This document shows, one piece after another, positions 1-64,000 of a stretch of DNA of 64,000 bases. The notes under the pieces were generated by a model. That model saw nothing but the letters and a program-made list of their open reading frames with translations. It did not search any database and was not told the origin of the DNA. The position numbers and the translations under genes are program-made. Positions within the stretch are counted from its first letter, which is position 1. Each line of letters opens with the position of its first letter. The stretch is from Breoghania sp. (GTDB taxonomy: Bacteria > Pseudomonadota > Alphaproteobacteria > Rhizobiales > Stappiaceae), in NCBI RefSeq assembly GCF_030066895.1, contig NZ_JASJAV010000017.1, positions 74,026 to 138,025 on the forward strand. Direction: 5' to 3'.

Positions 1-2139
1 AGGATCGGCAATCGCGCTGAAGGTCGAGACTGGATGGCCGCAGCCTCAGCTTGCCCTGATGGTCGACGGCAAGGGCCAGTCTGTCACCCCGCAGGCGGCA
101 CGGGCCGCGATCCCGCCCTCCGCCGGGCAGGCATCCGGTGCGGCCGGAACGGGACAGGCGACGGTTGCGCCGCAATCGGCACCGCAACCGGCTGTTCTCC
201 CACCCGTGTTGACATCCGGGGACGTCTTCACCGTGCGGGCGAGGGGGCAAACGGGACGGCCCGGTTCGCACCCGGGCAATCGGAGGTGACGGCCTGCCTT
301 CCCACGCCGCTCGATCTAGGCACACGCGTTCTTGCATTGAAGGTTGAGGCGGGCGGTACCAACACCCCGCGGCTTTCCATCGTGGTCGATGCCGAGGGTC
401 GCCCCGCGACACCCGACACCGTGCGCGCGCAGGTCGCCTCCGGACAGGTGCGCACGGGTTCCAGTTTTCCCGCACAGATAAGCTCCTCGCAAACAGCCGC
501 CTCGACGCAGACTGCACAGTAACCGTCCCTGAATGCCTCGACGGGCGATCTGGTACGCGCCCGCGTCCTCTCCCAGACGAGCGACGGCACGGCCCGGCTG
601 TCGATAGGTCGAGTGCAGGTCGAAGCGCGCCTGCCGGTCGCACTGGAACTGGGAGCTGCCGTGACCCTGAAAGTTGAGGCTGGGAAGGTCGAGGCCGGGA
701 AAATCTCGTTCGGCAATGCCGGAACAGGGGTTGCGACCGCAGGCAGTGTGGGCACCGGGACTGCGACGGCGGGGCAGGCTGCGCCACGTCTCTCCGTTCT
801 CGTCGATCCGCAGAGCCGCCCGCTTTCCGGCGATGTGACGCGCACCGTCAATGCTGTCCGGGTCCAGCCGGGCGTGGAGGCAACCGTCGTTTCTGGATCA
901 CGCACCTTGCCCGCATCCGGTTCGGTCGTGACCGCCCGCTTCCTGTCGCCCGCCGCAGACGGCATGACGCAGCTTTCCATCGGCAAGACGGTCGTCAAGG
1001 TCCCGCTGGCAACGCCGCCGGAACCGGGCTCGACGGTTCTGGTGAAGATCGAAGGGACGGGGACCGCGGCAGCGTCGACGGCAGTTGGCGCCCGGTCCGA
1101 AGCTTCGGCTGCGACAGGGGGGCGCAGGCCGTCCGCAGATCGCTCTTCTCACCGATCATCAGGGCCAACCGATTTCCGATGAGACCGCAAAAGCGATTGC
1201 GCAGTCTCGGGCACGCCTTCGGGGGAGGCGACAATCACCCGCAATGCTGCGTCCACCGAAGGGCGCACTGAGCTGCGTCCCGAAGTCCTGCAAAAGGCGG
1301 TCGATGATGCGCGTCCGCAGGTTGCCGCGCCACAGGATTCGATGGCTCCGCTTTTCGCCAACGCTGCCACCGGGCGCAACAATCCCTTGCCGCCAGTCTT
1401 GCAGCAGGTGGTGCGCGATCTTCTGAGGTTCCGGGTGCCGACGGACGGCCTGAGCGGAGACCAGTTACGCACCGCCGCCGGACAATCTGGGATTTTTAAC
1501 GAGGCCGAAGCCGCCGCCGCCAAGGTGCAGAACAAGGCCGCCGGCGCGCAGGCACGCCGCCGCCGCTGCCGCGCGCCGGAGGCCAGTTGCAGGGACAGCC
1601 GCCTGCCCAGGTGAGTCTCGCCGACGATGCCTCTCCCAAGCAGGCCGCGCGCGCTTCTGTCGGATACGGAGGCCGCGCTGTCGCGCATTGGCCTGTCGCA
1701 ATTTGCCTCGCACGGCTCCGCAACCGGGGCAGATGCCGCCCACGGACGCGCGGTGCAGCCTGCCCAATGGATCTTCGAAATCCCGCTCACCATGGAGACG
1801 GGAACGACGATGGCGCAATTCCAGATCACCCATGAGGATCAGAACGGCGGCGCCTACGATCAGCCTGAGGCGGCTGGGTGATGACTGCATTTCGCGCTCG
1901 ATCTGGAAGATACAGGGCCGGTCGAAAGCCTCGTTGCGCTGGGCGGTGCGGGAACGGCGGTGACGGTGTGGGCGGAGCGGCCCGATGTCGCGGCGACCTT
2001 GCGCGCGGGGGCGGACGAGCTTGCGGGCGTTCTGGAACTCTCCGAGATCGATGTCGCCAGCGTGCGGGTGCGCCAGGGTCTGCCCAAACGCAAGGCGGAG
2101 ACGGCGACCTCTGGTCGCTTTCTGGACCGGCGTACATGA
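1..2139 (+). pseudogene. FliK-like flagellar hook-length-control-family protein with N-terminal repeats; 5' end outside window; disrupted
   Basis: Fragments 34-522, 613-1182, 1342-1614 and 1627-1881 join through stops and frameshifts. Reading through TGA-TGA at 1879-1884 gives QWIFEIPL..AQFQI...G**LHFALDLEDTGPVESLVAL...VTVWAERPDVAATLRAGADELAGVLE...FLDRRT, a typical Flg_hook C-terminal domain. Final stop 2137-2139 overlaps the next ATG. Lesions: TAA 520-522, frameshifts near 1130 and 1570-1620, double TGA. Confidence 0.75.
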
Positions 2140-2420
2140 GCGACGAGATGAAAAAGGGCGATCCGAACTGGGTCGCGGTGGCTCTCAGAGACGACCATGT
2201 CGGCGCCCAGCGCGTGACGACAGCCAAGGGTGCCGGTCATGTAGCGGACAACATCCTGAAGCTTGCGCGCGAGAGCGGCGTGCCGGTGGAGGAGGACGCG
2301 ATCCTTGCCCAGGCACTGGCGCAATTGAACCTCGACGAGGATATCCCGGAGGAGCTCTACAAGGCCGTGGCGGTGATCATCGGCTTCATTCTGCGCAGGG
2401 GCGGCAAACAGCCCAAATAG
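2136..2420 (+). CDS. EscU/YscU/HrcU (FlhB C-terminal-only, FlhX/YlqH-like) export-switch protein
   Basis: MSDEMKK...AVALR....AQRVTTAKGAGHVADNILKLARESGVPVEED..LAQALAQLNLDEDIPEELYKAVAVIIGFI matches the FlhB-C family pattern. ATGA overlap with the upstream FliK-like gene. Confidence 0.85.
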   Translation: MSDEMKKGDPNWVAVALRDDHVGAQRVTTAKGAGHVADNILKLARESGVPVEEDAILAQALAQLNLDEDIPEELYKAVAVIIGFILRRGGKQPK

Positions 2421-2589
2421 GGAATGAATTGCGGGCTTCCACCGTATTTTGGCAACCCGTTGTGGGGCGTGTTTCAAGAACCTCTTGCAGCTTGACGAAA
2501 GACGCACTAGGCAACAGCAAAGCCCGCGCGCGACGAACCCATCGCCGCGCAGGCCCAACGCTTTGCCGCAGACAGGATCCTTTGCAGCC

Positions 2590-4074
2590 ATGACGATAGT
2601 CGATACCCGCACCCCCGACCCGAAGAAGTTCATCAAGGGCGACACGGGCGATTGGGAAATCGTCATCGGCATGGAGGTGCACGCGCAAGTCACCTCCAAG
2701 TCGAAGCTTTTCTCCGGGGCTTCCACCGAGTTCGGTCATGAGCCCAATTCCAACGTCTCGCTGGTCGACGCGGCCATGCCCGGCATGCTGCCCGTGATAA
2801 ACGAGGAATGTGTCAGGCAGGCGATCCGTACCGGTCTCGGCCTGAAGGCGGCGATCAACAACAAGAGCGTGTTCGATCGCAAGAACTACTTCTATCCGGA
2901 TCTGCCGCAGGGCTATCAGATCTCGCAGTTCAAGCAGCCGATCGTCGGCGAGGGTAAGATCCTGCTCGACATGTCGGAAGACGAGCAGGTGGAAATCGGC
3001 GTGGAGCGCCTGCATCTGGAACAGGATGCGGGCAAGTCGCTGCACGACCAGCACCCCTCCATGTCCTTCGTCGACCTGAACCGCTCGGGCGTGGCGCTGA
3101 TGGAGATCGTCTCCAAGCCGGATCTGCGCTCCTCCGACGAGGCCAAGGCCTATCTCACCAAGCTCCGGACCATCCTGCGCTATCTCGGCACCTGCGACGG
3201 CAACATGGAGCAGGGCTCGATGCGCGCCGACGTCAACGTCTCGGTTCGCAAGCCGGGCGGCGAGTTCGGCACGCGCTGCGAGATCAAGAACGTCAACTCC
3301 ATCCGCTTCGCCGGACAAGCGATCGAATACGAGGCGCGTCGCCAGATCGGCATTTTGGAGGACGGCGGCTCCATCGATCAGGAAACCTGCCTGTTCGATC
3401 CGGGCAAGGGCGAGACGCGCTCCATGCGCTCCAAGGAAGAGGCGCACGATTACCGCTACTTCCCCGATCCCGACCTGCTGTCGCTGGAATTCGATGACGC
3501 CTATGTCGATGCGCTGCGCGTTGGGTTGCCGGAGCTGCCGGACGAGAAGAAGAGCCGCTTCATCGCCGATTACGGCCTGTCGGCCTATGATTCCGACATT
3601 ATCGTGCAGGAGAAGGCATCTGCCGACTTCTTCGAGGAAGTCGCGAAGGGCCGTGACGCAAAGCTTGCCGCCAACTGGGTGATCAACGAGCTTTTCGCCT
3701 ATCTGCACAAGGCGGGCCTCGACGTTGCGACAAGTCCGATCTCCGCAGAACAGCTCGGTGGCATCATCGACCTGATCAAGGCTGGCGACATCTCCGGCAA
3801 GATCGCCAAGGATCTCTTCGAGATCGTGTGCGCGGAAGGCGACGATCCGAAGAAGATCGTCGAAGAACGCGGCATGAAGCAGGTCACCGACCTCGGCGCG
3901 ATCGAGGCGATGGTGGACGAGATCATCTCCGCCAATCCCGACAAGGCCGAACAGGTCAAGGAAAAGCCCGGTCTGCTCGGCTGGTTCGTTGGCCAGGTCA
4001 TGAAGGCGTCGAAAGGCAAGGCCAATCCGCAGGCGGTCAACGAGCTGCTGCACAAGAAGATCGGGATCGAATAG
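2590..4074 (+). CDS. gatB: Asp-tRNA(Asn)/Glu-tRNA(Gln) amidotransferase subunit B
   Basis: Motifs [69 protein letters not shown]. Intact. Start taken at the ATG of [10 protein letters not shown]. Confidence 0.98.
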
Positions 4075-4116
4075 GCAACAGGCGCTAGTCGCCCGTCCCT
4101 CCATTCCGCAAGATTA

Positions 4117-4140
4117 CCCCTCCCCCAATTGAGGGGAGGG
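4117..4140. repeat. REP-like purine/pyrimidine hairpin (CCCCTCCCC-loop-GGGGAGGG), possibly the gatB terminator
   Basis: cccctcccccaattgaggggaggg just downstream of gatB; resembles the hairpins at 20086-20200 and 42319-42359. Confidence 0.5.
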
Positions 4141-4391
4141 ACCTTTTGAGAAATGGAAATGAGGCGATCGATTCGCGTCCGGGTTCTGACGCGACCATTT
4201 TCGCATGCCCAGGTGCTGTGCATGCCTCAAATGAGGCAGAATGTCGTCAAACTTGCGCTACGGCAGGGCCGAACGCGCATTGGAATTCCTGAATCTTGCC
4301 ATGCCTTTGCCGTGTTCGTTTCCGATTTTCCTCGTCTAAAGCGAGACATAAGCGGATAAGAGCCTAATCCGACCGTATGTCGGTAACGGGT

Positions 4392-4416
4392 GGAACCAAC
4401 TCGCAATCGCCGCGTT
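4392..4416 (+). promoter_or_regulatory. Putative EcfG/sigmaT (general stress response) promoter upstream of opgG
   Basis: GGAAC (4392-4396) - 16 nt - CGTT (4413-4416) matches the alphaproteobacterial EcfG consensus GGAAC-N16/17-CGTT, about 135 bp before the opgG start. Confidence 0.55.
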
Positions 4417-4552
4417 GGCGTTGCAGGTCAAATGTTCGCTCAAAGAGAAATGAAGGCAACGAAGGGAACGGCAGGCGATCGATGGGACAATGCTTGTGCT
4501 GAAAGGCGCGTTCCCGAAACGTCAATGTTAAGCCCGACGGTCAGGTCTACAC

Positions 4553-6202
4553 GTGCGAGATAAGTCACTACTCAACATTGATCGACGTTTTTGTCTCAAG
4601 GTCGGAGCCGGTTTCATCGCCGCTTTGGTTGGCAGCGGAGCACTTCCCGCTTTCGCGGAGGACGCAACGCAGCCGGACAAGAACTCCGACGCAACCCGTG
4701 ACGTCGTCGGCGACAAGCAGGCCGACGGTGCCGATTCCGCCCCGTTCAACTGGGACTGGCTGGTCGCTCGCATGAAGGCGCGCGCTGATGCGCCCTATCA
4801 GGACGATCAGGGCACGCTGCCGGACATGGTGGCCGCTCTCGATTACGATAAGCATCGCCGGATCCGCTTCAAGCCGGATCATGCGCGCTGGCGCGACAGC
4901 AACCGCAATTTCGAGCTTCAGGCCTTCTATCCCGGGTGGCTGTTCGACAAGCCCGTACACTTGTTCGAGGTCGTGGACGGCAAGCTTCATCCGATGGCGT
5001 TCCAGGCGGACGACTTCGAATATCGCGAGCCGCTGGATGCGGAAGCCTTCGAGAAGGTGGATCTTCCCGGTGTTGCCGGTTTCCGGCTGCATTACCCGCT
5101 CAACCACTCCGACTATCGCGACGAGCTGGTTTCCTTTCTGGGCTCAAGCTATTTCCGGGTGCTCGGGCGCGGCAATGTCTATGGTCTGTCCGCCCGCGGC
5201 TTGGCGGTGGATACCGCGGCCGGTACCGCGGAAGAATTCCCGCGCTTCACCCGCTTCTATATCCAGCGGCCGGAACAGGGAGCGCGCGACATCCGCCTCT
5301 TTGCGGAGTTGGAAAGCGAGCGCGTGGTGGGCGTCTATGCCTTCACCATCACGCCCGGCGTGGAAACGGTTGTCGACGTTCAGGCCGCCATCTTCCTGCG
5401 CGATGCCGTGTCTCGTCTCGGCCTTGCGCCGTTGAGCTCGATGTATCTGTTCGGTGAGAACGATCACACCGGCTTCGACGATTTTCGCCCCGAGGTGCAT
5501 GACAGCGACGGGCTGGTCATCCTGCGCGCCAGCGGCGAACGCGTGTGGCGGCCACTGACCAATCCGGGCGAGCTTCAGCTCTCCGTCTTCAGCGAAGACA
5601 ATCCCGGCGGCTTCGGTCTTCTGCAGCGCGACCGCTCGCCCGACCACTATCTCGATACCGAGGCGTGCTACGAGCGCCGTCCCTCGGTCTGGATCGAGCC
5701 GGTTGGGGCATGGGGCAAGGGATCGGTATTCCTGGCGGAAATCCCCTCCAAGGAAGAAGTGCACGACAATGTCGTCGCCTTCTGGATGCCGGAAGACGGC
5801 CTGGAAGCCGGGTCGGAACACTGGCTGCATTATCGGATGCTGTGGGCGATGGAAGTGGAAGGCGATGTGCCCGTCGCCCGCGTGATCCGAACTCGAACCG
5901 GGCGCGGCGGTACGGGGTCCTCGGACGAGGATCCGGACTTCCGCAAGTTCCTGGTCGACTTTGCCGGTGAGCCGTTCGCCGGTCTTGGGGAGGATGCCGC
6001 CATGGAGGTGAAACTCCATGCGGACAACGGAAAGATAAAACATCAAATCCTGAACAAATTGCCGGGTAAGGACGTTTGGCGATTGATCGTGGACATAAGG
6101 CGCAAAGATACGGATAAGCCCATTGAACTCAATGCAGCGCTGTTCCTCGATGAAAAACGCCTCACGGAAACCTGGACATACCAATGGGGTCAAGCAGTAT
6201 GA
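4553..6202 (+). CDS. opgG: Periplasmic glucan biosynthesis protein OpgG/OpgD (MdoG family) with Tat-like signal
   Basis: GTG start; RRFCLK twin-arginine leader; motifs FLGSSYFR, YGLSARGLA, EEFPRF, FRPEVHDSDGL, GFGLLQRDR, E..DNVVAFW, TETWTYQW. Intact. Confidence 0.95.
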   Translation: MRDKSLLNIDRRFCLKVGAGFIAALVGSGALPAFAEDATQPDKNSDATRDVVGDKQADGADSAPFNWDWLVARMKARADAPYQDDQGTLPDMVAALDYDKHRRIRFKPDHARWRDSNRNFELQAFYPGWLFDKPVHLFEVVDGKLHPMAFQADDFEYREPLDAEAFEKVDLPGVAGFRLHYPLNHSDYRDELVSFLGSSYFRVLGRGNVYGLSARGLAVDTAAGTAEEFPRFTRFYIQRPEQGARDIRLFAELESERVVGVYAFTITPGVETVVDVQAAIFLRDAVSRLGLAPLSSMYLFGENDHTGFDDFRPEVHDSDGLVILRASGERVWRPLTNPGELQLSVFSEDNPGGFGLLQRDRSPDHYLDTEACYERRPSVWIEPVGAWGKGSVFLAEIPSKEEVHDNVVAFWMPEDGLEAGSEHWLHYRMLWAMEVEGDVPVARVIRTRTGRGGTGSSDEDPDFRKFLVDFAGEPFAGLGEDAAMEVKLHADNGKIKHQILNKLPGKDVWRLIVDIRRKDTDKPIELNAALFLDEKRLTETWTYQWGQAV

Positions 6203-6591
6203 GAGCCGAAATGTCTCAGCGCGAACACAGCTTCAACCCGGAAATGAGCGGTGCGGAAAGCATGTCGTGCGACGGTTTGCGCCAGGCGCTCGGGCGTCCG
6301 GATCTCGATGACGAAACGTTGCGCGACGCCGTGCGCGATGTCGTCATGGGATTGACGCGTTTTCGATCGCTGGATGGCAAGGATGATCTGATCGCGCGGG
6401 TTAGCCGCGGCGAGCTCGATGACGATCGCGCGCGCGCCGTCGTCTCCTGCCTGTGCATCCCCGCGTCCAGGGCGCCGCTTCTCATGCCGCTGCAGGTGCT
6501 GGAAGTGCCGCACGTGCCGCTGCTCGCGCGGCTTTTCGCATTCACGCGTAATTCCAGCCGTGTCCGTGTTCGGCAAAGGGTGCGGGGCTGA
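6199..6591 (+). CDS. OpgI-like small protein between opgG and opgH
   Basis: ATGA-coupled to the opgG stop. Contains IPASRAPLLMPLQVL, resembling the P..APL.MP.Q.L motif of OpgI and the MdoH N-terminus. Same position as opgI in Rhodobacter-type opgGIH operons. Confidence 0.55.
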   Translation: MRAEMSQREHSFNPEMSGAESMSCDGLRQALGRPDLDDETLRDAVRDVVMGLTRFRSLDGKDDLIARVSRGELDDDRARAVVSCLCIPASRAPLLMPLQVLEVPHVPLLARLFAFTRNSSRVRVRQRVRG

Positions 6592-6674
6592 TCCCGTCAT
6601 CCCGCCGAACTTGAACGGAGGTCCGCTCATCGCCCGTCCCTGACCGCGATGAGCGCCATTCGGAGTGCCATCCC

Positions 6675-8471
6675 ATGGAGTCTGGTCCCGGTAAGCCCGG
6701 TCTTCTTGAGACGTTGACGGTCGGACTGCGTCGGTCCGGCGCTATGATTCTGACCCTCGTGTTGACGATGGCAGCGGCGGCCATGTTCGTTTCTATCGCG
6801 GTTGCGGATGGCTTCGACTGGATGGACGTGGTGCGGGTGACGCTGGTCGCGTTCTGCGCCCTGTGGCTGTCCTGGGGCGCGTGTATCGCCGTTCTGGGAT
6901 TGTTGTTTGCGTCGGAAAAGGTTCTGCGGATCGAAGGCGCCCCCAGCGGGCGCACGGCGATCGTCGTTCCCATCTACAACGAGGCGGCCGACGCCGTTTT
7001 CGCCCGTATCGATGCGATGTATCGCGGGCTCAAGGACAAGGGCGTGCTCGACACGTTCGATTTCCACGTCTTGTCCGATTCCACCGAGGAAGAAGCGGTC
7101 GCCGACGAAAAGCGGCTCCATCGCCGGGCCGTGGCCGCGCTTGGCGCGGGCGGACGGCTTTTCTATCGCCACCGCTCGCCCAATACCGGGAGCAAAGTCG
7201 GCAATATCGGCGAATTCATCCGCGCCAACGGCGGCGCCTATGACTATATGCTGGTGCTGGACGCCGACAGCCTGATGATGCCGGAGACCATCGTGGAGAT
7301 GGTGTGCCGGATGGAGGCTGTCCCCGATCTCGGTCTGTTGCAGACGGTGCCGCTCATCATTGGTCGTCGCACGCTGTTCGGCCGCATGATCCAGTTCTCC
7401 GCCAACTTCTATTCCCCGTTCTTCTCTCGCGGCGTTACCGCTTTGCAGGGGCGGCAGGGGCCCTTCTGGGGGCATAACGCGCTGATCCGCATGCGGGCCT
7501 TTGCCGAAAGCTGCGGCCTGCCTGCGCTCGTCGGCAAGCCTCCTTTTGGCGGTGATATCCTCAGTCACGACACGGTCGAGGCCGCCATGCTGGCGCGCGC
7601 CGGCTGGCGCGTCCGTCTCGATCCCGATCTTGGTGGCTCCTACGAGGAAGCGCCCGCTAATCTTATCGAATACGCCAAGCGCGACCGCCGCTGGTGCCAG
7701 GGCAACCTGCAGCACGCGCGCGTGCTCGGGGCCCCGAAACTGAAGTTCTGGAGCCGCCTCAGCATCATTCAGGGCATCTTCGGCTATGTCGCCTCGCCGA
7801 TCTGGCTGCTGTTCCTGGTCGCCAGCGTGGCCGCGCCGCTGTTTGCGCCGCCGCCCGTCTACTTCATGTCGGACTCGCTCTTTCCCCGGTTCCCGCATCC
7901 GGAAACCGAAAAGGGACTGGCTCTGCTGTTCGGCGTCGTCGCCCTGCTGATCCTGCCCAAGGCGTTGCTGCTCATCCGGTCCGTTGCGACGGGGGAGGCG
8001 GGCGTCTACGGCGGCAGCATGCGCGCTTCGCTGTCCGCTCTGCTCGAACTGCTGCTCGCCTCGCTGCTGGCGCCGATCCACATGATGTTCCAGAGCCGGT
8101 CTGTCTATCAGGTTCTGTCGGGGGCAGATTTCGGCTGGCCGTCGAGCGACCGTGAGGACGGCTCCCTCGGCTTCCTTACCGCCTGGCAGGCAAGCTGGTG
8201 GATGGTCGCTTTCGGTGTCGGCACGATGGGCTTTGCCTACGAGTTCGCGCCTTCGCTTCTCGTCTGGCTGTGGCCCGTGGCCTTGCCGCTGGTCTTTGCG
8301 CCCGTCGTAATCTGGTGGACGGCCTCGCCCGATGCGGGCGGCAGTGCGCGCCGCCGCGGTGTCTTCCTCACGCCTCAGGAATGGCTCGAGGTCCCGGTGA
8401 TCTCTTCTGTGGCCCGTGCGCTCGACTACTACGCGGCAACGGAAGAAGAGCCCTTTCCGCAGGCGGCCTGA
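6675..8471 (+). CDS. opgH: Glucans biosynthesis glucosyltransferase OpgH/MdoH
   Basis: GT2 motifs VPIYNE, LSDS, KVGNI (consensus KAGNI), LDADSLM, FWGHNA, LSHDTVEA, RDRRWCQGNLQH; multiple TM helices. Intact. Confidence 0.95.
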   Translation: MESGPGKPGLLETLTVGLRRSGAMILTLVLTMAAAAMFVSIAVADGFDWMDVVRVTLVAFCALWLSWGACIAVLGLLFASEKVLRIEGAPSGRTAIVVPIYNEAADAVFARIDAMYRGLKDKGVLDTFDFHVLSDSTEEEAVADEKRLHRRAVAALGAGGRLFYRHRSPNTGSKVGNIGEFIRANGGAYDYMLVLDADSLMMPETIVEMVCRMEAVPDLGLLQTVPLIIGRRTLFGRMIQFSANFYSPFFSRGVTALQGRQGPFWGHNALIRMRAFAESCGLPALVGKPPFGGDILSHDTVEAAMLARAGWRVRLDPDLGGSYEEAPANLIEYAKRDRRWCQGNLQHARVLGAPKLKFWSRLSIIQGIFGYVASPIWLLFLVASVAAPLFAPPPVYFMSDSLFPRFPHPETEKGLALLFGVVALLILPKALLLIRSVATGEAGVYGGSMRASLSALLELLLASLLAPIHMMFQSRSVYQVLSGADFGWPSSDREDGSLGFLTAWQASWWMVAFGVGTMGFAYEFAPSLLVWLWPVALPLVFAPVVIWWTASPDAGGSARRRGVFLTPQEWLEVPVISSVARALDYYAATEEEPFPQAA

Positions 8472-8560: not shown

Positions 8561-9023
8561 CTAGCCGGACCCCGTCACTTCACCTGGCGCCCATCGCTGT
8601 ACCCGGCGCCAAGTTTCGCCCTTGCAGATCAATCCGCCCAGAACGCAACCGGACAGCTTGAGCTTGGTGTTCGTCACAAGCTCCATCTTGCCGGTATAGG
8701 TCTTGCCGTCCTCGGCATTGTAGACCTTGCCGCGCCAGGCATCGTCGCCCTTGGGCTTCATGCCGTAGATGGTGAGCACGCCCAGAAGCGGGCGACTGCG
8801 CTTGGCCGCATCCGGGTTGTGAACGCCCTTTTTGCCCTTGTCACGCAGCCAGACGAGCTTTCCGCACAAGGCGGTGCACACAGTCGGTAATGCGGATGCG
8901 GGAGCTTCCCGAAGGGCGTTCCCACGTGCCCTTTGCGTCTCCTGCGGCGGCGGTGCCGATCATCATCATGCCGCTGAGCACGACGGCGGCTGCAAGATGC
9001 AGGGCTTTCTTCGTTGTCTTCAT
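8561..9023 (-). pseudogene. DUF2147 domain exported protein, frameshifted
   Basis: Signal peptide plus GTWERPSGSSRIRI in the 8841-9038 frame switches near 8880 to LCGKLVWL...GKVYNAEDGKTYTGKM...LKLSGCVLGGLICKGETWRR in the 8561-8881 frame. Confidence 0.85.
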
Positions 9024-9465
9024 GATCTTCTCCTCCACGAACTCATTATTCTTTTGCTTGTTGGTTCACGGCCTACGATCCAGGCGATATCGGCATTTCT
9101 TTTGTTCTTCGCCGCGCATGCGGGGGGCGTTGAGGCGGGATCGATACGGGGCGGGAGAGCGATCGGGAGTTTTCCCCGTTGTTATCTGGATCGGAGTTTT
9201 CGACACGATCTGGCGCGATGGTTAGTGAATGGTGTTCGTTAATCAAACGTATTCATCGGTCGAATCCTGATTCAAATGGATAAATCTCCAGTGTTTTTTT
9301 ATAAGAGTCTTACGTTTACACTCTGTTTTTAAATTGTATTCTCTCTGTTAACTGAGAAAATTTACTCAAGCTTGAAGCCATTGGCCGAGACTTTCCCCTG
9401 TCAGAACGCAAACCGCAAAGACGGTTCTGGCAACAGGGACAGGCTTATTGCAAGGGGTGAAGACA

Positions 9466-9735
9466 ATGGCTTGCTTTGAGGTTCTGAGTGAAGACATGGC
9501 CGCGATGGGATCGCAGCAGATGAATGGCGAGATGCTCTATGAACTGGGCGTCAGCTACGCATCGGGCCGCGATGTGCCGGAAGATCTGGTGCTGGCCCAC
9601 AAGTAGTTCAATCTGGCGGCGATGAAGGGCTGTGGCGATGCTGCGCGCTATCGCAAGGAAATCGCGGAAGTGATGAGCTCTGCCGATATCGCCGAGGCCC
9701 AGCGCGCGGCCCGTGAGTGGCTGAGCATGCATTGA
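9466..9735 (+). pseudogene. Small Sel1-repeat protein with internal nonsense codon
   Basis: Not in the ORF track. MACFEVL...LYELGVSYASGRDVPEDLVLAHK*FNLAAMKG..DAARYRKEIAEVMS..DIAEAQRAAREWL. TAG at 9604-9606 replaces the conserved Trp of AHKWFN. Confidence 0.88.
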
Positions 9736-12794: not shown

Positions 12795-12986
12795 AGATTG
12801 ACCCGGATCTTCACCGATCCGGGCCAGTCCATCCCCTTGGCGCCATTATCTTCCTGCCGGAGTCCCCGCGTGTTCCGGCTCGCTGTAGCGAGCGGCGAAA
12901 AGTCCCTTGGATTTCCGTGAGAACATTCGTTTTGTGCGGAGAAAACGCTTGAAACCAAGGGTATTTGCCGATACCAACGCGGGATC

Positions 12987-50349: not shown

Positions 50350-50396
50350 ATCGTCCTTTCCTTGACAGCGTCCCTTCGGGACGTCGCCTTTTTTCT

Positions 50397-54179: not shown

Positions 54180-54737
54180 ATGTTTGACCCGCGCGAGAAA
54201 GTTGCGCTGTTCATTGACGGCGCAAATCTCTATGCGACCGCGAAATCTCTTGGTTTCGATATTGACTACAAGCGGTTGCTGAAAGAGTTTCAAGGAAAAC
54301 CTTATCTGTTGAGGGCCTATTATTACACGGCTCTTGTGGAGGATCAGGAGTATTCGTCAATTCGCCCGCTGATCGATTGGCTTGATTATAACGGTTACAA
54401 GGTCGTTACAAAGCCGGTCAAAGAATTCATCGACTCCTCCGGCCGCCGTAAAATCAAGGGCAGCATGGACATCGAACTGGCCGTCGATGCGATGGAAATG
54501 GCCGAATATGTCGATCATCTGGTGCTTTTTTCCGGCGATGGCGATTTCCGCTCGCTGGTCGAAGCCGTCCAGCGTCGCGGCCGCAAGGTCTCCGTGGTCT
54601 CCACCCTGCAGACCCAGCCGCCGATGATTGCCGACGACCTGCGTCGTCAGGCCGATCACTTCATCGACCTGAGCACGCTGGCCAACAAGATCGGTCGCGA
54701 TCCGGCCGAGCGCGAGGAAGTCTACGACGATCTTTGA
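54180..54737 (+). CDS. NYN-domain (LabA/DUF88) protein
   Basis: FIDGANLY, DIDYK, KG.MDIELAVD, LFSGDGDF, GRKV, L..QAD.FIDL. Conserved neighbour of rpoZ. Confidence 0.93.
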   Translation: MFDPREKVALFIDGANLYATAKSLGFDIDYKRLLKEFQGKPYLLRAYYYTALVEDQEYSSIRPLIDWLDYNGYKVVTKPVKEFIDSSGRRKIKGSMDIELAVDAMEMAEYVDHLVLFSGDGDFRSLVEAVQRRGRKVSVVSTLQTQPPMIADDLRRQADHFIDLSTLANKIGRDPAEREEVYDDL

Positions 54738-55634
54738 GGCGCGCACCCGCAAAGGGTGAGCGTCCTGGCGGCCATGCTGAGCTCGGTGGAAGCCGGATCG
54801 GTAAGATAAGATCGTTGTAAATCATTGGGTTAGGAGATGGGGCCAGGGCCTTGGAACCGACCTGGTCGACACGAGCCCGCCGATCCCGGCGGGCAGGGGG
54901 GCAGACGGCGATGACGCGCGAGGTGGCGGGATGCACCTTGCGTAACGAGCCAACGGCCCACGTTTTCGTGCGGCCGTGCGCGGACCGGGCAGGGTGCACG
55001 TACGGGCCGGTGTCGGCAGCCGAAATGGCTCAGGCAGTCTTCCGTCGCTCTTGGCGGACGCCGTATTGAGGCGTCCAGCGTTTTGGCGAACTGGTTCGGG
55101 CCTTCTTTCCTGCAAGGCTCGCGGACTGCGACATTCAATTTTTCGGAGAATGCATCGCTCCTGTTTGACCGGGAGTGGGGATCGTCTGTGCTCTTGTGGG
55201 AGGATGGGTGCGGACCGGGAATATCTTTTCGTATTGGCGGTGATATCTTGGTGCCAGCTCGCTGCGCGCGAGGGCGGCAGGACAGGAGTCGGCCGGATAT
55301 CGGGCTAATACGGAACTGCGGCCTCAGAACCGAAAAAAGTATAAGAAAACAAAGAACTGACGGTGTTTCTGAACACCGATTAATTTTCGTTTCGAATTCT
55401 CTCGAATTCCATTGAATTTCGGTGTTGGTCGCCAAAATCATCGAAAGGCCGATGCAATCGCGCCGACATTGCTCTGAGAACCTGGTCCGGATCACTTATC
55501 CCCACTCTGCGTTGGACTTCGGGGCGGTCCGGCATTCCGGTCGTCGCTTGGGGGAGGGATCTGGTTTAATGAGGCATGTCGGCCCGTCGCGATTCGGGGC
55601 CGTTTTCCTGTGTTTCGGAGCATCCCGACCTCCC

Positions 55635-56318
55635 ATGAGCGCTTCTTTTGAAACCTCCTTCGCCGCCGTTCCCGCGACCGTCACCGATCCCGATCGCGAC
55701 TGCCCGCGCTGTCCGCGGCTGGTGGAGTTTCGCCAGCTGCATCGCGGCCGCGAGCCGGAGTGGTTCAACGCTCCGGTGCCGAGCTTCCTGCCGTGCGGCG
55801 GAGCGAAGGAGGCGCGGCTGCTGATCGTCGGTTTGGCGCCGGGCTTGCGCGGTGCCAACAAGTCCGGGCGGCCCTTCACGGGCGATTATGCGGGCGATCT
55901 TCTGTACGAGACGCTGGATGCCTACGGCTTCTCGCGCGGCACCTTCAAGGCGCGGCCCGATGATGGGCTGGAGCTGGTCGGGGCCGCGATCACCAACGCG
56001 GTGCGTTGCGTGCCGCCGGAAAACAAGCCGACGGGTCCTGAAGTCAAGGCGTGCTGTCCGTTCCTGATCAACACGCTTGCGTCGATGACGAACTTGACCG
56101 CGATCCTGGTGCTCGGTCGGGTGGCGCACGAGACGGTGCTGACGACGCTGGAAAAGCGCCGCGCCTCCTATCCCTTCAGCCACGGCAGAGTGCACGATCT
56201 TGGCCATTACACGCTTTTCAACAGCTATCATTGCTCCCGTTACAACACCAATACCGGCCGCCTGACGCCGCAGATGTTCCGGGACGTGTTCGACAAGATC
56301 GCCGCGCATCTGGGGTGA
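55635..56318 (+). CDS. Uracil-DNA glycosylase, family 4/5 (UdgB-like, Fe-S)
   Basis: CPRCPRL, GLAPG..GAN..GRPFTGD, NAVRCVPPENKP, HCSRYNTNTGRLT. Intact; start at MSASFE. Confidence 0.92.
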   Translation: MSASFETSFAAVPATVTDPDRDCPRCPRLVEFRQLHRGREPEWFNAPVPSFLPCGGAKEARLLIVGLAPGLRGANKSGRPFTGDYAGDLLYETLDAYGFSRGTFKARPDDGLELVGAAITNAVRCVPPENKPTGPEVKACCPFLINTLASMTNLTAILVLGRVAHETVLTTLEKRRASYPFSHGRVHDLGHYTLFNSYHCSRYNTNTGRLTPQMFRDVFDKIAAHLG

Positions 56319-56363
56319 GGGGCGTTCGCGGGGGTTGAGTTGAACGTTGGGCGTTCTTTGCGG

Positions 56364-56494
56364 GGCCCATCCTTCGAGACGGGCCTGTCGGCCCTCCTCA
56401 GGATGACGTTATCGTATTGATGTCTTTGAAGAAGGCCGCGCCAAACACAACCTCATCCTGAGGAGGCGCGACGCGCCGTCTCGAAGGATGGGCC
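56364..56494. repeat. REP/MITE-like inverted doublet (copy B)
   Basis: ggcccatccttcgagacg...cctcctcaggatga ... tcatcctgaggagg...cgtctcgaaggatgggcc. Confidence 0.85.
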
Positions 56495-56532
56495 ACACGA
56501 TAATGGCCGTCCGGGAGCTCTCGCCCCACAGC

Positions 56533-57294
56533 TCACTTCCCGTCGGCACGGATCCAGCCCTGCGGACCCAGATGCTCCTGCGGCTGAAAGCGGGTCTTGT
56601 ATTCCATCTTCTTGGAGCCCGGCACCCAATAGCCGAGATAGACGTAAGGCAGCCCCATCTTCCGCGCGCGCTCGATGTGATCGAGGATCAGGTAGGTGCC
56701 GAAGGAGACGTGGCGGATGTCCGGGTCGAAGAACGAATAGACCATCGACAACCCGTCCGAGAGCACGTCCGTAAATGCGGCGGCCACGAGCGGGCCTTCG
56801 CCGCGATCCTCCTCGCTGAGGTCGGGACGGTTGTCGGCGCGATGGCGGTATTCGACCACGATCGTGTCGACATGGGTGTCTTCGATCATCAGGGCATAGT
56901 CGAGAAGCCGCATGTCGGCCATGCCGTCTTCGCCGTGACGGGCCGCCAGGTAGCGGCGAAAAAGCTCGTACCGTTCGGTCGAGGGAGTGGGTGGCTCCTC
57001 GCGCCCGACAAAGGCGCGTGCCGCATTGCGGGCGCGGCGCAGCGAGCGCGTGTAGTCGAACTCGTCGACCAGAATGCGCACCGATGTGCAGGAGCGGCAG
57101 GTATCGCAGGCCGGACGGTAGGCGATGTTCTGCGAGCGACGGAATCCGCCATGGGTCAGAACGTCGTTGAGAAACGTCGCGCGCTCCCCCACCAGATGCG
57201 TGAAGACCTTGCGTTCCTCTTGATCCGGCAGGTACGGACATGGTGCCGGTGCCGTCAGATGGAATTGCGGATTATCTGTAATGGGCTTTGTCAT
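56533..57294 (-). CDS. bpt: Bacterial arginyltransferase-like Asp/Glu leucyltransferase (N-degron pathway)
   Basis: [62 protein letters not shown]. Intact. Confidence 0.92.
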
Positions 57295-57451
57295 TGCCCG
57301 CGTCTCGCACCGAAATCAACATGTCAAAATTGTCAAATTATCATCCGAATTATACCGTAAGGTTATGAAACAGAACGGAAAAACAAAATACGAGGAAAAC
57401 GCGCAGGTCAAAATGTCTGACCCCGACGCCGCAATCTGCGCTCCCTTGTAT

Positions 57452-59281
57452 TCAGAAGCTATAATACCACGGCGCGAGTAATGAGAAAGACAGCCAAATG
57501 ACCAACACGAGCGGTGTTCCGGCGCGCAGGAAATCGGAAAACCGGTAGTGGCCCGGGCCCATCACGATCAGGTTCGTCTGATAGCCGATGGGGGTGGCGA
57601 AGGAGCAGTTGGCCGCAAAGATCAGGCACGTGGCGAAGGCGTTGACGTCGACGCCCGTGCGCGCCGCCATGTTGACGGCGATGGGCGCGAAAAGGACGGC
57701 GGTCGCGTTGTTCGACAGCACGTTCGTGAGCGCCGCGATCAGCAGGAACATCATGGACAGGATGACGGCCGGCGACTGGCCGGACATGGCGTCCATTAGC
57801 CCTTCGGCGACGAACTGTGCACCGCCGGTGCGTTCCAGCGCGGTGGCGGCGGCCAGCGAGGCGCCGATCAGCATGAAAATGCGGCTGTCGAGTGCGCGCA
57901 TCGCCTGACGCACGTTCAGGCAGCCGAACATCATCATCGCCAACGCGCCAGTAATCGCGGCCGTGACGATGGGCACCGCGCCGCTTGCCGCGGCCGCCAC
58001 CACGGCAACGAAGATCGCCAGTGCGCGCGGGGCGTAGCGGCGCTTGGGCACCTCGGCGGTGGACCAGTCCATCAGCAGCACATCGCGATTGCCGCGCAAC
58101 GACTGGATGTCTTCGTGCTCGCCCGCCAGCAGCAGCACGTCGCCGGCTTCCAGACGGATATCGGTCATCGCCATGCGCGGCATGCGGCTGCGGCGCTGCA
58201 GGCCCATGACAACGCAGTTCGATTCCGCCTTGAGGCTCGATTGCGCCGTGGTGCGCCCGATCATGCGCGAGCCGGGCGCCACCACCGCTTCGGCCAATGA
58301 GACGGCGCCGTCGGGCAGGGCGTGTTCGTCATCGGAGACTTCGCCGTTGTGGCCGGAGCGCACGATCGGCTTGCGCAACGACAGCGCCTTGGTCAGCGTC
58401 TGACGGGTGGCTGCGACGATGATCGTATCGCCCGGCTGCAGCTCCACCCCCTCGAAGGGCGGCAGGAACGGTTTTTCGCCGCGCTGGACGAGGCGCACCG
58501 TCATGTCGTGCAAGGACGGGAACATGCCTTTGACGGGCTTTGCGCCGACCAGCGGGTGATTGTAGGTGATCGGGATTTGGGCGATGAACTGCTTGCCGTC
58601 GGCCGGGGCCTGGATTTCGTCGGCCATGGTCTTTCGCGGCGTCAGCAGGTAGGGCATCATGAAGATGATGTAGAACGAGCCGATGAAGGCCAGCATCACG
58701 CCGAGCGGCGTGAACGAGAAGAAGCCGATGGTGATGCCGCTGGTCCGTCCCGCGACATCTGCCGCCAGCAGGTTGGTGGACGAACCGATCAACGTCGTCA
58801 TGCCGCCCAGGATGGCGATGGAGGACAGCGGCATCAGCACCCGCGAGGCCGAGGTCCCCGCAGCCGCGGCCACGGCCGCCAGAACCGGCAGGAACATCAC
58901 CACAACCGGCGTGTTGTTCAAAAAGGCGGAGATGACGGCGACGCCGATCAGGATGGGCGTGACCGGTCGAAGCCTGATCCGGCGAAAGCCGCCCAGCACG
59001 ACCTGGGTCGGCTTTTCTAGCGCATCGGTCTGAAACAGCGCCTGACCGACGACGAGCAGCGCCATGATGGTGATGAGCGCGGGATTGGCGAAGCCCATCA
59101 GCAATTCGCGTGGGCCGAGCGGGGTCGGACCCTGATAGGGAAAAACGGTGAAGATGAGCACGAAGGCAACGACAGAGCCCAACGCCGTGAACTCGATCGG
59201 AAACCGTTCCCAGGCATAGAGCAGAATCGTTCCGGCGATCACCACGAAGGTGAGTGTCATCTGGATATCGGCAACCGTCAT
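57452..59281 (-). CDS. SLC13/CitT-like permease with TrkA-C domains
   Basis: SAFLNNTPVV, LGG.TTLIGSSTNL, central TrkA-C repeats (L.PGD), LTNVLSNNATAVL, FATPIGYQTNL..MGPG.YRF.DF. Intact. Confidence 0.92.
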   Translation of the reverse strand: MTVADIQMTLTFVVIAGTILLYAWERFPIEFTALGSVVAFVLIFTVFPYQGPTPLGPRELLMGFANPALITIMALLVVGQALFQTDALEKPTQVVLGGFRRIRLRPVTPILIGVAVISAFLNNTPVVVMFLPVLAAVAAAAGTSASRVLMPLSSIAILGGMTTLIGSSTNLLAADVAGRTSGITIGFFSFTPLGVMLAFIGSFYIIFMMPYLLTPRKTMADEIQAPADGKQFIAQIPITYNHPLVGAKPVKGMFPSLHDMTVRLVQRGEKPFLPPFEGVELQPGDTIIVAATRQTLTKALSLRKPIVRSGHNGEVSDDEHALPDGAVSLAEAVVAPGSRMIGRTTAQSSLKAESNCVVMGLQRRSRMPRMAMTDIRLEAGDVLLLAGEHEDIQSLRGNRDVLLMDWSTAEVPKRRYAPRALAIFVAVVAAAASGAVPIVTAAITGALAMMMFGCLNVRQAMRALDSRIFMLIGASLAAATALERTGGAQFVAEGLMDAMSGQSPAVILSMMFLLIAALTNVLSNNATAVLFAPIAVNMAARTGVDVNAFATCLIFAANCSFATPIGYQTNLIVMGPGHYRFSDFLRAGTPLVLVIWLSFSLLAPWYYSF

Positions 59282-59545
59282 TCGTCGCCCGCCTGCACTC
59301 GCTTCCCCTGAGCGTTGAACGCATCGAGCCCTTCAGCCCCCTTCGTCGGGAACGAAGGCGGTTCCCCGTTGCGTCTCATCTCGTTCAAAAACCTCCATTC
59401 AACCCTTGCCGGGTCGATGATGCCATCCGTTACGCTGCCCGCGAACGGCCGTGTGAAATCCGCTCCTCCGATTTCGCGATTCCCCGGATCGGCATGAGCC
59501 TGACCCAAACGGGTAGCCGCTTCAATCGACAGGTGCAAGCGCCGT

Positions 59546-60031
59546 TCAGAAGCTCCGCGACAGTGCCGCTGAGTTAACGATGATGCTGCCCAGAATGATA
59601 TCGTGAAGAAGCCGCTTCTTATTGGAAAACAGCGAAACCAGCAGCACGAGCGGCGTGATCATGGTGACGGAAACCCAGAACAGCACCACGTGGACACCAG
59701 CCAGAAGTGGGCTCGACCTGCTGCCGTCGTGAAGACGCATCTCGACGCCGAAGGCGCGCATGCCGGGGGTGGCTGCTTCCGGTCCACCCAGCGTGAAGGC
59801 GGTGTAGAGAATGGCGACGCCCTGCCACAGGAAGGCATAGACGAGCCAGCCGAGGCCGAGGGTAAAGATGTCGACAAAGAAGACGATCACACCGGCGACG
59901 GAGGTGAGGATCGCGATGGCGATCGCGTCGATCAGGAAGGCGAAGATGCGCTTGGTGCGCACGCCCTCATACAGCGCCATGTATTCCAGCGGATCGGGGG
60001 CGGAAAGCGCGTCCGGTTCGACGGTGCTCAT
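59546..60031 (-). CDS. RDD-family membrane protein
   Basis: Y.GVRTKRIFAFLID, ATPGMR, KRLLHDI. Usual neighbour of bpt and hemB. Intact. Confidence 0.9.
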   Translation of the reverse strand: MSTVEPDALSAPDPLEYMALYEGVRTKRIFAFLIDAIAIAILTSVAGVIVFFVDIFTLGLGWLVYAFLWQGVAILYTAFTLGGPEAATPGMRAFGVEMRLHDGSRSSPLLAGVHVVLFWVSVTMITPLVLLVSLFSNKKRLLHDIILGSIIVNSAALSRSF

Positions 60032-60362: not shown

Positions 60363-61612
60363 TCAGCCCGCCGTCTCGGCCGCATCGACGCGCTTCACCG
60401 TGTAGCCGCGCTTCTCGATGGCGCCGATGATCTCTTCGGCGTGCTCGTTGTCGCGCGTTTCCATGGTGATATCGAGGATCGCGCCCTTGGCGGGCACATC
60501 GAGGAAGCGGCGGTGGTGGGCGACTTCCACCACGTTGCCGTCCATCTCGCCGACGAGCGAGGTGATTTCGCCCAAAACACCCGGACGATCCGGAATGGCG
60601 ATGCGGATCGCCACCATCCGGCCCTCGCGGGCAAGCTCGCGTACGATGATGGAGGCGAGAAGCTGTGGATCGATGTTGCCGCCCCACAGAACAAGCCCGA
60701 CACGCTTGCCCCAGAATTCCTCCGGCTCCTGCAACAGGGCGGCAAGCCCGGCCGCGCCCGCGCCTTCGGCAACCGTCTTCTGTAGCGCCAGGAAGGCGTT
60801 GACGGCCCGCTCGATGGCCGCTTCCTCCACCAGCACGATATCGTCGACGAGTGCGCCTGCGATCTGTCCCGTCAGCGCTCCGACATTCTTGACCGCGATG
60901 CCCTCGGCCAGCGTGTTGCCACCGCAGCGCGGCTCGGTGCCGTGAAGCGTGGCGTACATGGAGGGGTAGAGCGCGGCCTCCACGCCGATGATCTTGATTT
61001 CGGGCGCCAGCGCCTTGGCGGTAATTGCGATGCCGGAAATCAGCCCGCCGCCGCCGATCGGCACGACGAGGGCATCGAGATCCTTGTTCTTCTCCAGCAT
61101 CTCCAGCGCGATGGTGCCCTGACCGGCAATGACGCGCTTGTCGTCATAGGGATGGACGAGGGTGAGGTTGCGCTCCTTGATTAGGCGTTCCACCTCGATC
61201 TGGGAATCGGCAATCGTCTCGCCCGCCAGCACAACTTCCGCCTCGTGCGAGCGGGTGGCGGCGACTTTCACATGCGGGGTCGTCTTCGGCATAACGATGA
61301 CGGTCGGAATGCCGAGCCGTGCGGCGTGATAGGCAACCGCCTGGGCGTGTTTTCCCGCCGACATGGCGATGATGCCGCGCGCGCGTTCCTCCTCTGTGAG
61401 CGAAAGCATCTTCAAGGAGCGCGTCGCGCTCCTTGAAGATGACGTATTGCTGGTTCGCGAACTTCACCCAGACGTCCGCGCCGGTCAGTCGCGAGAGGCT
61501 GGGGGCGGGAAAGAAGGGCGTGTGCACCCACCTGCCCCTCGATAAGCCGTGCCGCCTCGCGAATGTCTTCAAGCGTGACGGGAAGGGGAGCGGAGGCAGG
61601 ATCTGAAGACAC
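60363..61612 (-). pseudogene. Threonine/serine ammonia-lyase with C-terminal ACT domain, 5' frameshifts
   Basis: SAGKHAQ (consensus SAGNHAQ), GQGT, PIGGGGLISG, EGAGAAGLAA, GGNID, ACT IPDRPGVL. The N-terminus (VTLEDIREAARLI; TPFFPAP; FKER) is spread over three frames, with shifts near 61530 and 61420-61445. Confidence 0.85.
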
Positions 61613-61741: not shown

Positions 61742-62409
61742 TCAACTGGCGGCAAGGCTCGCAAGCGTGCTGGCGAGCATCAGCAGCGCGAAGGCGACGT
61801 TGATCAGGCGGTAATGCGCGGGGTGCGCACGACATAGGAAAGCAGCCGCCCGCCCGCGACCCAGCAGAAGTTCATAGCGCCGCCCAGAAAGAAGAACGTC
61901 AGCCCGATCACCGTCGCATCCGCGCCGTAGTGTTGCGGTGAGGTGAATTGCGAGATCGCTGCGATCTGCATGGCGTAGGTCTTGGGATTGAGCGGATGGA
62001 TCCAGAACCCGTGCAGGAAACCGGGCGCCGCCGCCTGTCGTTCGGTCGTTCCTTCGCCGGGGTCCTTGTCGGCGCCGGGTGAGGGAGAGGGCGCTGCTGC
62101 GGGAACGGGCGCCGTGGCGATGAGCCAGGCGAGATAGGTGATGTAGGCGATCTTCAACCCCTGCCACAGGAGCGGAACGCCGGAAAGCATGGCAAGCAGC
62201 CCGGCGGCCGCGAGGCAGAAGGTAAGCGTGAAGCCGAAAAGCGAGCCCGCAAGGAAGGGCAGGGTGTGCGCGATGCTGTGCGAGCCGCTGACGGCGACGA
62301 ACGCCATGTTCGCCGGACCCGGCGTTTCCGTCAGCGCCATGACGTAAAAGGCAAGGAGCAGAAAGCGGTCCGCAGGCATCAGCGCGGAGAGAAACGTGTC
62401 GGCGAACAT
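61742..62409 (-). pseudogene. LysE-family exporter with 3' frameshift
   Basis: TPGPANM, G.L.GF, LKIAYI.YL.WL, NPKT. The last TM helix (LINVAFALLML) is in another frame after a shift near 61830. Confidence 0.75.
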
Positions 62410-62483
62410 GGCAAAACGCCTCGTCGGCAAGGTCCTCGCCCGGCAATGGCCTGCGTGACGCGCTTGAGGAGCGGGATCTCTCC

Positions 62484-63524
<1,041 letters not shown>

Positions 63525-63634
63525 GGTCAGGCTCCGATAGCGGCATGTTTCTCCCAGTGAGGCATGGTGTAGCACCATGCAGCAGGTGGGGAAACCGGAT
63601 TGGAGGTAGATCTGTCGGATTTCCGGGAGGGAGG

Positions 63635-63794
63635 GGATTGGAATGTGGGGCCCATCCTTCGAGACGGCGCTTTGCGCCTCTTCAGGATGACGTTATCGTG
63701 TTGCTCGCTTCTGCAGAGCCATCAACACGATAACGTCATCCTGAGGAGCGCTCGCAAGAGCGCGTATCGAAGGATAGGCCACACATTCCAATCC
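63635..63794. repeat. REP/MITE-like inverted doublet (copy C, most complete palindrome)
   Basis: ggattggaatgtg-gggcccatccttcgagacg...caggatgacgttatcgtgttg / caacacgataacgtcatcctg...tcgaaggat-aggcc-acacattccaatcc. Confidence 0.88.
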
Positions 63795-63892
63795 AACTCC
63801 CCACACCTCATGTTTGATTGACGCTTTCCGCATCGGCAGATATCTCCGGGGCCGACAAGAGGACCCATCGATCCGGCAGTGAGGAGACGGGG

Positions 63893-64000
63893 ATGGACTT
63901 TGCTCTGAGCGAAGAGCAGCGCGCCTTTCAGGAAATGGCGGGCGATTTCGCGCGTGAGGAAATGGAACCCCATGCGCACGAATGGGACGAGACCTCGACC
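63893..64000 (+). CDS. Acyl-CoA dehydrogenase, 5' fragment (runs off the window)
   Basis: MDFALSEEQRAFQEMAGDFAREEMEPHAHEWDE, a typical ACAD N-terminus. Confidence 0.85.
   Translation, partial: MDFALSEEQRAFQEMAGDFAREEMEPHAHEWDETST

Follow-up and report, generated by a model that had tools for sequence, protein, structure and literature searches.

Interleaved broken and intact genes in a Breoghania genome suggest an early stage of reductive genome evolution

Broken and intact genes of the window

When comparing a 64,000-nt stretch of DNA from a Breoghania genome (C4:74026-138025 of the source assembly; hereafter the window) with the corresponding regions of congeneric species, we observed that 18 of its approximately 47 genes (38%; about 26 kb) are broken, as judged against the intact orthologs of four congeners and by Pfam domains, whereas the other 29 (about 27 kb) are intact, and that the two classes are interleaved at the kilobase scale. 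The source assembly is a binned metagenome genome rather than that of a clean isolate; it comprises 4.65 Mb in 52 contigs (about 45 main ones) with an N50 of 174 kb, completeness of 94.9% and contamination of 0.4%, and includes contigs with animal-type retrotransposons as well as Bacteroidota-like contigs. Genomes of six other species of the same genus were available, among them four, denoted G003 to G006, that show 85-87% nucleotide identity to the window in parC and have genomes of 4.4-5.3 Mb with completeness of 99-100%. In a tree made from 14 kb of intact genes, the source genome is the sister of the G005-G006 pair, and G003 and G004 form the other branch. Reference open reading frames (ORFs) were called in the syntenic 80-kb stretches of G003 to G006 and at two further loci and were compared with the window using tblastn, after which the broken genes were aligned at the nucleotide level with MAFFT; genes without an ortholog were judged from the arrangement of Pfam domains on adjoining ORFs and from a Viterbi path based on codon usage. 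The syntenic part of the window, 42 kb, corresponds to 43.6 kb in G006.

The most heavily damaged gene encodes a bacterial alpha-2-macroglobulin (24495-30057, plus strand), which, when aligned to the 1846-aa ortholog from G006, retains its full length and nevertheless contains six frameshifts (24724, 25303, 27189, 27829, 28428 and 29603), all caused by indels of 1-2 nt in homopolymer runs of 1-2, and five nonsense codons (24510, 25115, 25804, 25993 and 29683), three of which are single-base changes (CAG to TAG twice, and TGG to TGA). Downstream, on the same strand, the PBP1C gene (pbpC; 30245-32405) carries frameshifts and four nonsense codons (30629, 30671, 31358 and 32355), and upstream, also on the plus strand, the gene for an NtrC-like sigma-54 activator (22718-24306) has at least three frameshifts and at least one stop. 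Next to these lies the minus-strand gene of a Redoxin/AhpC-TSA protein (21937-22519), with a 1-nt insertion at 22201 and a TGG to TAG change at 22207.

An Opp/Dpp-type peptide ABC transporter operon (14497-20030, plus strand), compared with the intact operon of G004 at 81% nucleotide identity, has three of its five genes broken: the substrate-binding protein gene (14497-16109) is frameshifted at 15517, the permease C gene (17197-18045) combines a TGG to TGA change at 17257 with a 36-nt deletion, and the ATPase D gene (18068-19068) is frameshifted at 18629. The genes for permease B and ATPase F stand intact beside them. The tandem family of Porin_2 porins, which has three to five intact copies in G003 to G006, has a sole intact survivor in the window (32774-33976, plus strand), followed by a second paralog (34242-35430, plus strand) that is frameshifted at about 34562 and about 34814; with the family down to two copies, deletion of whole genes has begun as well.

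Flagellar and chemotaxis genes are also affected. The left end of the window is occupied by a pseudogene for the flagellar hook-length control protein FliK (1-2136, plus strand, extending past the window edge), with five in-frame stops and one frameshift, where the orthologs in G003, G005 and G006 are single ORFs of 804-820 aa with a Flg_hook domain. In the gene of a methyl-accepting chemotaxis protein (MCP; 43445-45476, plus strand), a frame switch near 44392 places the sensor part and the HAMP/signaling part in different frames, and the MCPsignal match ends early, at profile position 114 of 172.

The remaining broken genes are diverse. Comparison by tblastn with orthologs from G003 and from contig C11 of G006 identified a DUF2147 remnant of which only the C-terminal 92 aa are left (8597-9066, minus strand) and a gene of 89 aa that is interrupted by an in-frame stop (9466-9732, plus strand). 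A LysR regulator gene (9975-10843, minus strand) has a frameshift near 10412, with the HTH_1 domain and the LysR_substrate domain (profile positions 77-208) on two abutting ORFs in different frames, and a second, truncated LysR-type gene (20423-21094, minus strand) shows a Viterbi frame switch, lacks the helix-turn-helix domain and covers only positions 4-150 of 209 of LysR_substrate. An MFS transporter gene (11521-12738, plus strand) is interrupted by one or more in-frame stops between 12049 and 12096, with both halves of MFS_1 in the same frame. Three further minus-strand genes are disrupted, namely, those for an SLT lytic transglycosylase (35551-37679; two stops, frameshifts and a decayed N-terminal part), a DUF2062 protein (49108-49691; frameshift near 49500) and an IlvA-like threonine dehydratase with PALP and ACT domains (60369-61593; frameshift near 61415). 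In the ten window pseudogenes that could be aligned, the lesion density is about 2.2 per kb.

A block on the plus strand (2139-8468) that consists of an FlhB-C-like gene (2139-2414), gatB, opgG, a small opgI-like ORF and opgH has full-length Pfam matches and is intact relative to its orthologs. The genes dapA, smpB, parC and recO (38057-43173) are 80-94% identical to their orthologs at the amino acid level over their full length and carry no lesion, and comparison with orthologs and Pfam likewise shows intact era, rnc, lepB and pdxJ (45542-49086, minus strand), pyrE, spoT, rpoZ and genes for an NYN protein, UDG, Bpt, a CitMHS/SLC13-type transporter and an RDD protein (49771-60031), and a LysE-type exporter gene with hemB (61813-63539, minus strand). 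Across about 23 kb of intact window genes verified by orthologs, there are no lesions, where about 50 would be expected at 2.2 per kb; control comparisons between the relatives themselves yield zero to one frameshifted gene per 35.

These results agree closely with an original prediction that had been derived from the letters of the window. It had counted some 20 broken accessory genes, or about 40% of the total, and at least 11 lesions in the alpha-2-macroglobulin gene, and the present figures of 18 of about 47 genes and exactly 11 lesions bear out both counts. The 18 core genes that it had listed as free of lesions (gatB, opgG and opgH, dapA, smpB, parC, recO, era, rnc, lepB, pdxJ, pyrE, spoT, rpoZ, NYN, UDG, bpt, SLC13/CitMHS and hemB) are all intact and were named correctly. 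Its assignment of the DNA to the order Hyphomicrobiales also fits: the best named matches of ParC, at 73-75% identity, are from Stappiaceae, Stappia, Roseibium, Polymorphum and Rhodobium, that is, from the Stappiaceae/Hyphomicrobiales, and the Pfam-detected presence of the Porin_2 family was counted as consistent with this order.

Two features of the window concern its layout. The parC-recO block (39930-43173) has the same orientation in the window as in G003, G004 and G005 and the opposite one in G006, so the rearrangement belongs to G006. Intergenic repeats of about 95-120 bp, found in the window at 20083-20201 and 12986-13083, recur in dozens of copies with 80-92% identity across G001 to G006, G009 and G012, and look like a genus- or family-wide family resembling repetitive extragenic palindromes or miniature inverted-repeat transposable elements.

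Extent and selectivity of the decay

The decay is genome-wide and not local, and the window is typical of the genome. By a crude measure, intact ORFs with a high GC content at third codon positions (GC3) cover 64% of the source genome and 66.5% of the window, compared with 83% in G006. As a sample of orthologs, we used 273 reference genes from 18 evenly spaced 20-kb segments of contig 1 of G005; in the source genome, 95 of these are intact, 76 broken, nine partial and 93 either missing or less than 60% identical. Thus, among the 180 genes shared with G005, 42% are broken and a further 5% are partial. The same pipeline applied between relatives scored 5.7% of genes as broken (24, against 381 intact, in the pooled comparisons), and most of these calls are N-terminal artifacts of ORF over-extension. 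In a reference-free scan of the contigs longer than 20 kb for switches of the Viterbi path into another frame without a stop in the old one, we found 1,049 switches (232 per Mb) compared with a single one in 720 kb of four relatives; every contig above this size is affected, at densities of 8-45 per 100 kb. Splits of genes by same-frame stops occur at 120 per Mb, against a background of about 26 per Mb in the relatives.

The essential and housekeeping genes that we checked are spared. The S10-spc-alpha ribosomal block together with the genes for EF-Tu, EF-G and rpoBC includes 33 genes (26 kb) that are 82-99% identical to their orthologs, and all 33 are free of lesions, although two non-ribosomal neighbors of the ribosomal block are broken, one of them with five stops and a frameshift. 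Together, the core genes that we checked amount to about 49 kb without a lesion, where 40-80 would be expected. The broken genes are those for transporters, sensors and regulators and flagellar genes, whereas the intact ones are those of translation, replication and the envelope. By Pfam, the broken genes of the sample include ABC permeases and substrate-binding proteins, histidine kinases, LacI, FIST, PhnJ, homogentisate dioxygenase (HgmA), TRAP and EAL, and the intact ones include HisRS, DXS, MurJ, S1, EPSP synthase, MutS, ExoVII, YidC and glycine cleavage proteins. The export gates of the FlhA family (FHIPEP) illustrate the pattern: the relatives have three intact copies, and in the source genome all are inactivated: two copies (G000:C1:10216-12192 and G000:C47:155592-157208) are dead, one interrupted by four stops and one broken up into five pieces, and the third copy is absent. 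Because these FlhA-family copies, FliK and an MCP are all inactivated, motility has apparently been lost.

The lesion counts of the sampled genes are described well by a mixture of two classes, one protected (a fraction of 0.42) and the other unprotected and accumulating 1.59 lesions per kb, with observed counts matching the expected ones. Under this model, about 26 of the 95 intact sampled genes should lack protection and simply have escaped a lesion so far. A single Poisson rate, as expected of a uniform error, was rejected (the likelihood-ratio chi-square in favor of two classes is 52).

Could the lesions be technical, that is, errors of sequencing or assembly such as those of a poorly polished long-read metagenome-assembled genome, or the product of a homology-guided frame correction that mended conserved genes only? 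The figure of 232 frameshift-like events per Mb does fall in the range of unpolished long-read assemblies. The makeup of the lesions is nonetheless at odds with such an origin: among the 151 lesions of the broken sampled genes, nonsense codons (81) exceed frameshifts (70), and the aligned indels lie outside homopolymers, in runs of 1-4 nt and mostly of 1-2. An error process also would have to leave no trace in the 26 kb of ribosomal and rpoBC genes and in some 23 kb of window core genes while inflicting up to 11 lesions on neighbors a few hundred base pairs away, and a homology-based polisher would have mended the broken genes too, given that these have orthologs with about 80% identity. The broken genes also show an excess of substitutions in first and second codon positions. 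Finally, the overlapping contig ends and the lack of any assembled repeat of 400 bp or longer make the assembly look like one of the short-read type. Given this combination of features in the sequences, sequencing error appears to be a very unlikely cause, and we give a technical origin in any form very little credence.

An explanation of a different kind would be that the apparently broken genes are alive and are read by recoding, through either reassignment of a stop codon or widespread programmed frameshifting. In its favor, TAG is the most common internal stop (39 of 85) and accounts for all four stops of one FlhA copy. Yet TGA (33) and TAA (13) also occur inside the broken genes, the stops derive from Trp, Gln, Arg, Glu and Tyr codons, and, with a GC3 of 82% and many CAG, GAG, TGG and TCG codons, an excess of TAG follows. 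The frameshifts are of varied size (+1, -1, +2, -2 and larger) and share no motif, and the same genes also contain deletions and truncations. Reassignment of a stop codon was rejected, given that all three stops are found in broken genes and none in core genes, and recoding in general can be regarded as next to impossible.

Timing of the inactivation

The pseudogenes have hardly shrunk, with a length of 11,002 nt compared with 11,040-11,238 nt in the sister species, and the genome as a whole, at 4.65 Mb, is close in size to those of the relatives (4.4-5.3 Mb, with 5.3 Mb in a sister species). The GC content of the main contigs is 61.6% (64.6% in the sister G005), and GC3 is 0.82 (0.84-0.87 in the sister species), both values being within the range of the genus.

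The substitutions specific to this lineage point to relaxed selection. In the broken genes, they are nearly flat across codon positions, with a ratio of second- to third-position changes of 0.63, compared with 0.23-0.375 for the same genes in the relatives; the corresponding ratio for the intact genes is 0.31, compared with 0.12-0.22. Purifying selection is somewhat relaxed in these retained genes too, a modest effect that fits a smaller effective population. In the broken genes, the branch ratio of non-synonymous to synonymous substitutions (dN/dS) is about 0.22, and in the sister pair it is 0.156; simple arithmetic on these values puts the neutral share of the branch at roughly 7%, or about 0.03 substitutions per site. 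This estimate agrees with the density of about 0.85 nonsense codons per kb in the unprotected class. Furthermore, one rate fits all unprotected genes, which implies that selection on them was lifted recently and at about the same time.

Taken together, the sequence comparisons provide good support for early reductive evolution, that is, for an erosion that appears to be real, selective, recent and genome-wide. The original prediction had proposed the same, and the grounds that it gave hold up: the asymmetry between core and accessory genes is present, the pseudogenes are of full length and GC is still high. Two findings that would have spoken against it did not turn up: essential genes elsewhere in the genome, namely, the 33 ribosomal, elongation factor and rpoBC genes, are not broken, and coding density is abnormal, well below that of a congener. 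The erosion is an evolutionary process and not a molecular device.

Possible cause and known cases of genome erosion

The best explanation of the data as a whole, in which we have considerable although not full confidence, is that the lesions are real and that the lineage stands at the beginning of a reduction of its genome, triggered, by inference, by a host-restricted mode of life. The supposed trigger, a switch to a sheltered, nutrient-rich life, probably one restricted to an animal host, would have made dispensable motility, chemotaxis, many uptake systems, regulators, periplasmic defense (alpha-2-macroglobulin together with PBP1C) and some biosynthetic functions (ilvA). What the comparisons show is that approximately 58% of the genes shared with the sister species have lost the protection of their reading frames and gather short indels and nonsense point mutations at a nearly uniform rate of about 1.6 per kb. 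The remaining genes, about 42%, stay free of lesions, and they include the genes for translation, transcription, replication, repair, the cell envelope and the synthesis of cofactors and nucleotides, along with spoT and opgGH. Host restriction as the cause is deduced from which functions were lost, from how many genes were released and how nearly at one time, and from what else the bin contains.

The bin contains three kinds of retroelements that hint at a sample from a marine animal. Contig C20 is a Gypsy/Gmr1-type long terminal repeat retrotransposon, with an integrase upstream of the reverse transcriptase and a SCAN-like gag, the best named matches of which are proteins of the sea cucumber Holothuria leucospilota (50-55%). 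Contig C16 contains copies of an RTE-type long interspersed element (LINE) with the best named match in the amphioxus Branchiostoma belcheri (65-67%) and the nearest copy, at 89%, in the ENA assembly ERZ25070786, and contig C19 is another reverse-transcriptase element, of 61% GC, with a reverse-transcriptase domain and matching ends. As to the identity of a host, these are weak hints at the family level.

Other contigs of the bin stand apart from the main genome. The low-GC contigs C44, C14 and C9 are apparent contaminants from other bacteria that encode an SprB-repeat protein with a type IX secretion system tail, a protein combining GH16 and PKD, LRR/DUF5018 proteins and a 2801-aa ORF with GEVED; C44 and C14 look like Bacteroidota. 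Contigs C21 and C45, each roughly 6 kb long with a GC content near 60%, have the same layout of two large ORFs (about 995 aa and 750-794 aa) for which a Pfam search gave no match, and the ends of C21 share sequence. Judging by primer-site matches, a single rRNA operon is assembled inside the 229-kb contig C6, at about 69.5-73 kb; a search for rRNA on the odd small contigs found none.

Several observations weigh against the host-restriction scenario. Proliferation of insertion sequences (IS) and other mobile elements is shown by many, although not all, young symbionts, and a self-comparison of the genome with megablast gave no repeat of 400 bp or longer, with the proviso that a short-read assembly could hide some copies. 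A bias from GC to AT as a mark of the lineage was rejected, being no stronger than that among the relatives' own new changes. In the retained genes, the branch dN/dS has risen only modestly (about 0.147 compared with 0.119). The retroelement contigs, finally, may have been binned by chance, and they show that animal DNA was in the sample, not that there was a symbiosis.

Part of this evidence could also suit an erosion that is real and has another cause, the organism being a free-living or alga- or protist-associated specialist or an obligate pathogen, or having gone through a severe bottleneck or a mutator episode. The sequence itself names no host, there is no IS bloom, the shift in GC is small, the intact MutS, RecO, UDG and ExoVII suggest that genome maintenance is still good, and the relatives among the Stappiaceae include many free-living marine bacteria. 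Nevertheless, the losses comprise the export gates of the flagellum, a chemoreceptor and numerous regulators and uptake systems, which is the classic set of host restriction, animal retroelements are found in the same bin, and a mutator alone would not spare the core genes. To our knowledge, there is no well-documented free-living bacterium in which some 58% of the genes lost frame protection at once. We consider such a cause improbable, although it deserves to be kept in mind, and favor restriction to an animal host.

Conceivably, one could be more specific: the organism might be a host-restricted, so far undescribed symbiont of Stappiaceae-like affinity that lives with a marine invertebrate among the deuterostomes (one akin to echinoderms or amphioxus, as judged by the co-binned retroelements), is within about 3% neutral divergence of a single synchronous release affecting about 58% of its genes and has yet to undergo IS expansion, large deletions and an AT shift. 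We offer this as a tentative proposal that has the odds against it. A literature search retrieved the general framework of genome erosion and no description of the organism, an absence that proves little.

Few genomes represent the very beginning of reductive evolution, and the majority of those known belong to insect-associated Gammaproteobacteria. The genome described here, that of a marine alphaproteobacterium, has close, intact and apparently free-living congeners, pseudogenes of full length, no IS bloom and a distribution of lesions that a simple two-class model fits. The genes that are released first, the neutral spectrum of indels and nonsense changes in a high-GC bacterium and the speed of deletion after inactivation would become accessible to measurement; should the genome indeed be that of a symbiont, it would offer an exceptionally clean model, at "time zero", of how symbiont genomes erode outside insects. 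There is also a practical consequence, in that about 1,000 or more of the genes called in the public version of this genome are pseudogene fragments, so functional and metabolic inference overestimates the capabilities of the organism, among them motility, peptide uptake and isoleucine synthesis.

Genome-wide inactivation of genes, with the core metabolism retained, is not without precedent. In Mycobacterium leprae, about 40% of the genes are pseudogenes that kept their length, core metabolism is preserved and inactivation apparently occurred in one burst; this bacterium, however, is an actinobacterial obligate pathogen, its genome is about 1 Mb smaller than that of M. tuberculosis and its decay is older. 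Perhaps the closest parallels are the young insect symbionts Sodalis glossinidius and Sodalis pierantonius (SOPE) (PMC7067036, PMC3914690), which similarly combine a genome of free-living size (about 4-4.5 Mb) and low coding density with close to half of the genes turned into pseudogenes by frameshifts or nonsense changes and an intact housekeeping set. Unlike the present organism, these are Gammaproteobacteria that live in insects, and SOPE has undergone a massive IS expansion, whereas the source genome is fairly contiguous and without repeats of 400 bp or longer, and its symbiosis is presumed from the genome. Serratia symbiotica, a recent aphid symbiont described as undergoing "massive genomic decay" (PMC3056288), shares the recent, genome-wide decay relative to free-living congeners and the many recognizable pseudogenes, but belongs to another class, has an insect host, carries abundant mobile DNA and has a genome that is already shrunk. 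A high-GC or large genome early in erosion, with many frameshifted genes, is also seen in "Streptomyces philanthi", a defensive symbiont of beewolves (PMC8092579), in "Candidatus Erwinia dacicola" (bioRxiv 10.1101/2025.08.03.667778) and in Nostoc azollae (PMC2900214), all three of which lead an extracellular or facultatively intracellular host-bound life; they belong to other phyla and have other hosts, and their symbiosis has been demonstrated experimentally, whereas here it is deduced indirectly. The pattern of decay as such is thus already known, and what is unusual in the present case is its occurrence in a marine Stappiaceae-like lineage, without an assembled IS expansion and with a clean distribution of lesions between two classes of genes.

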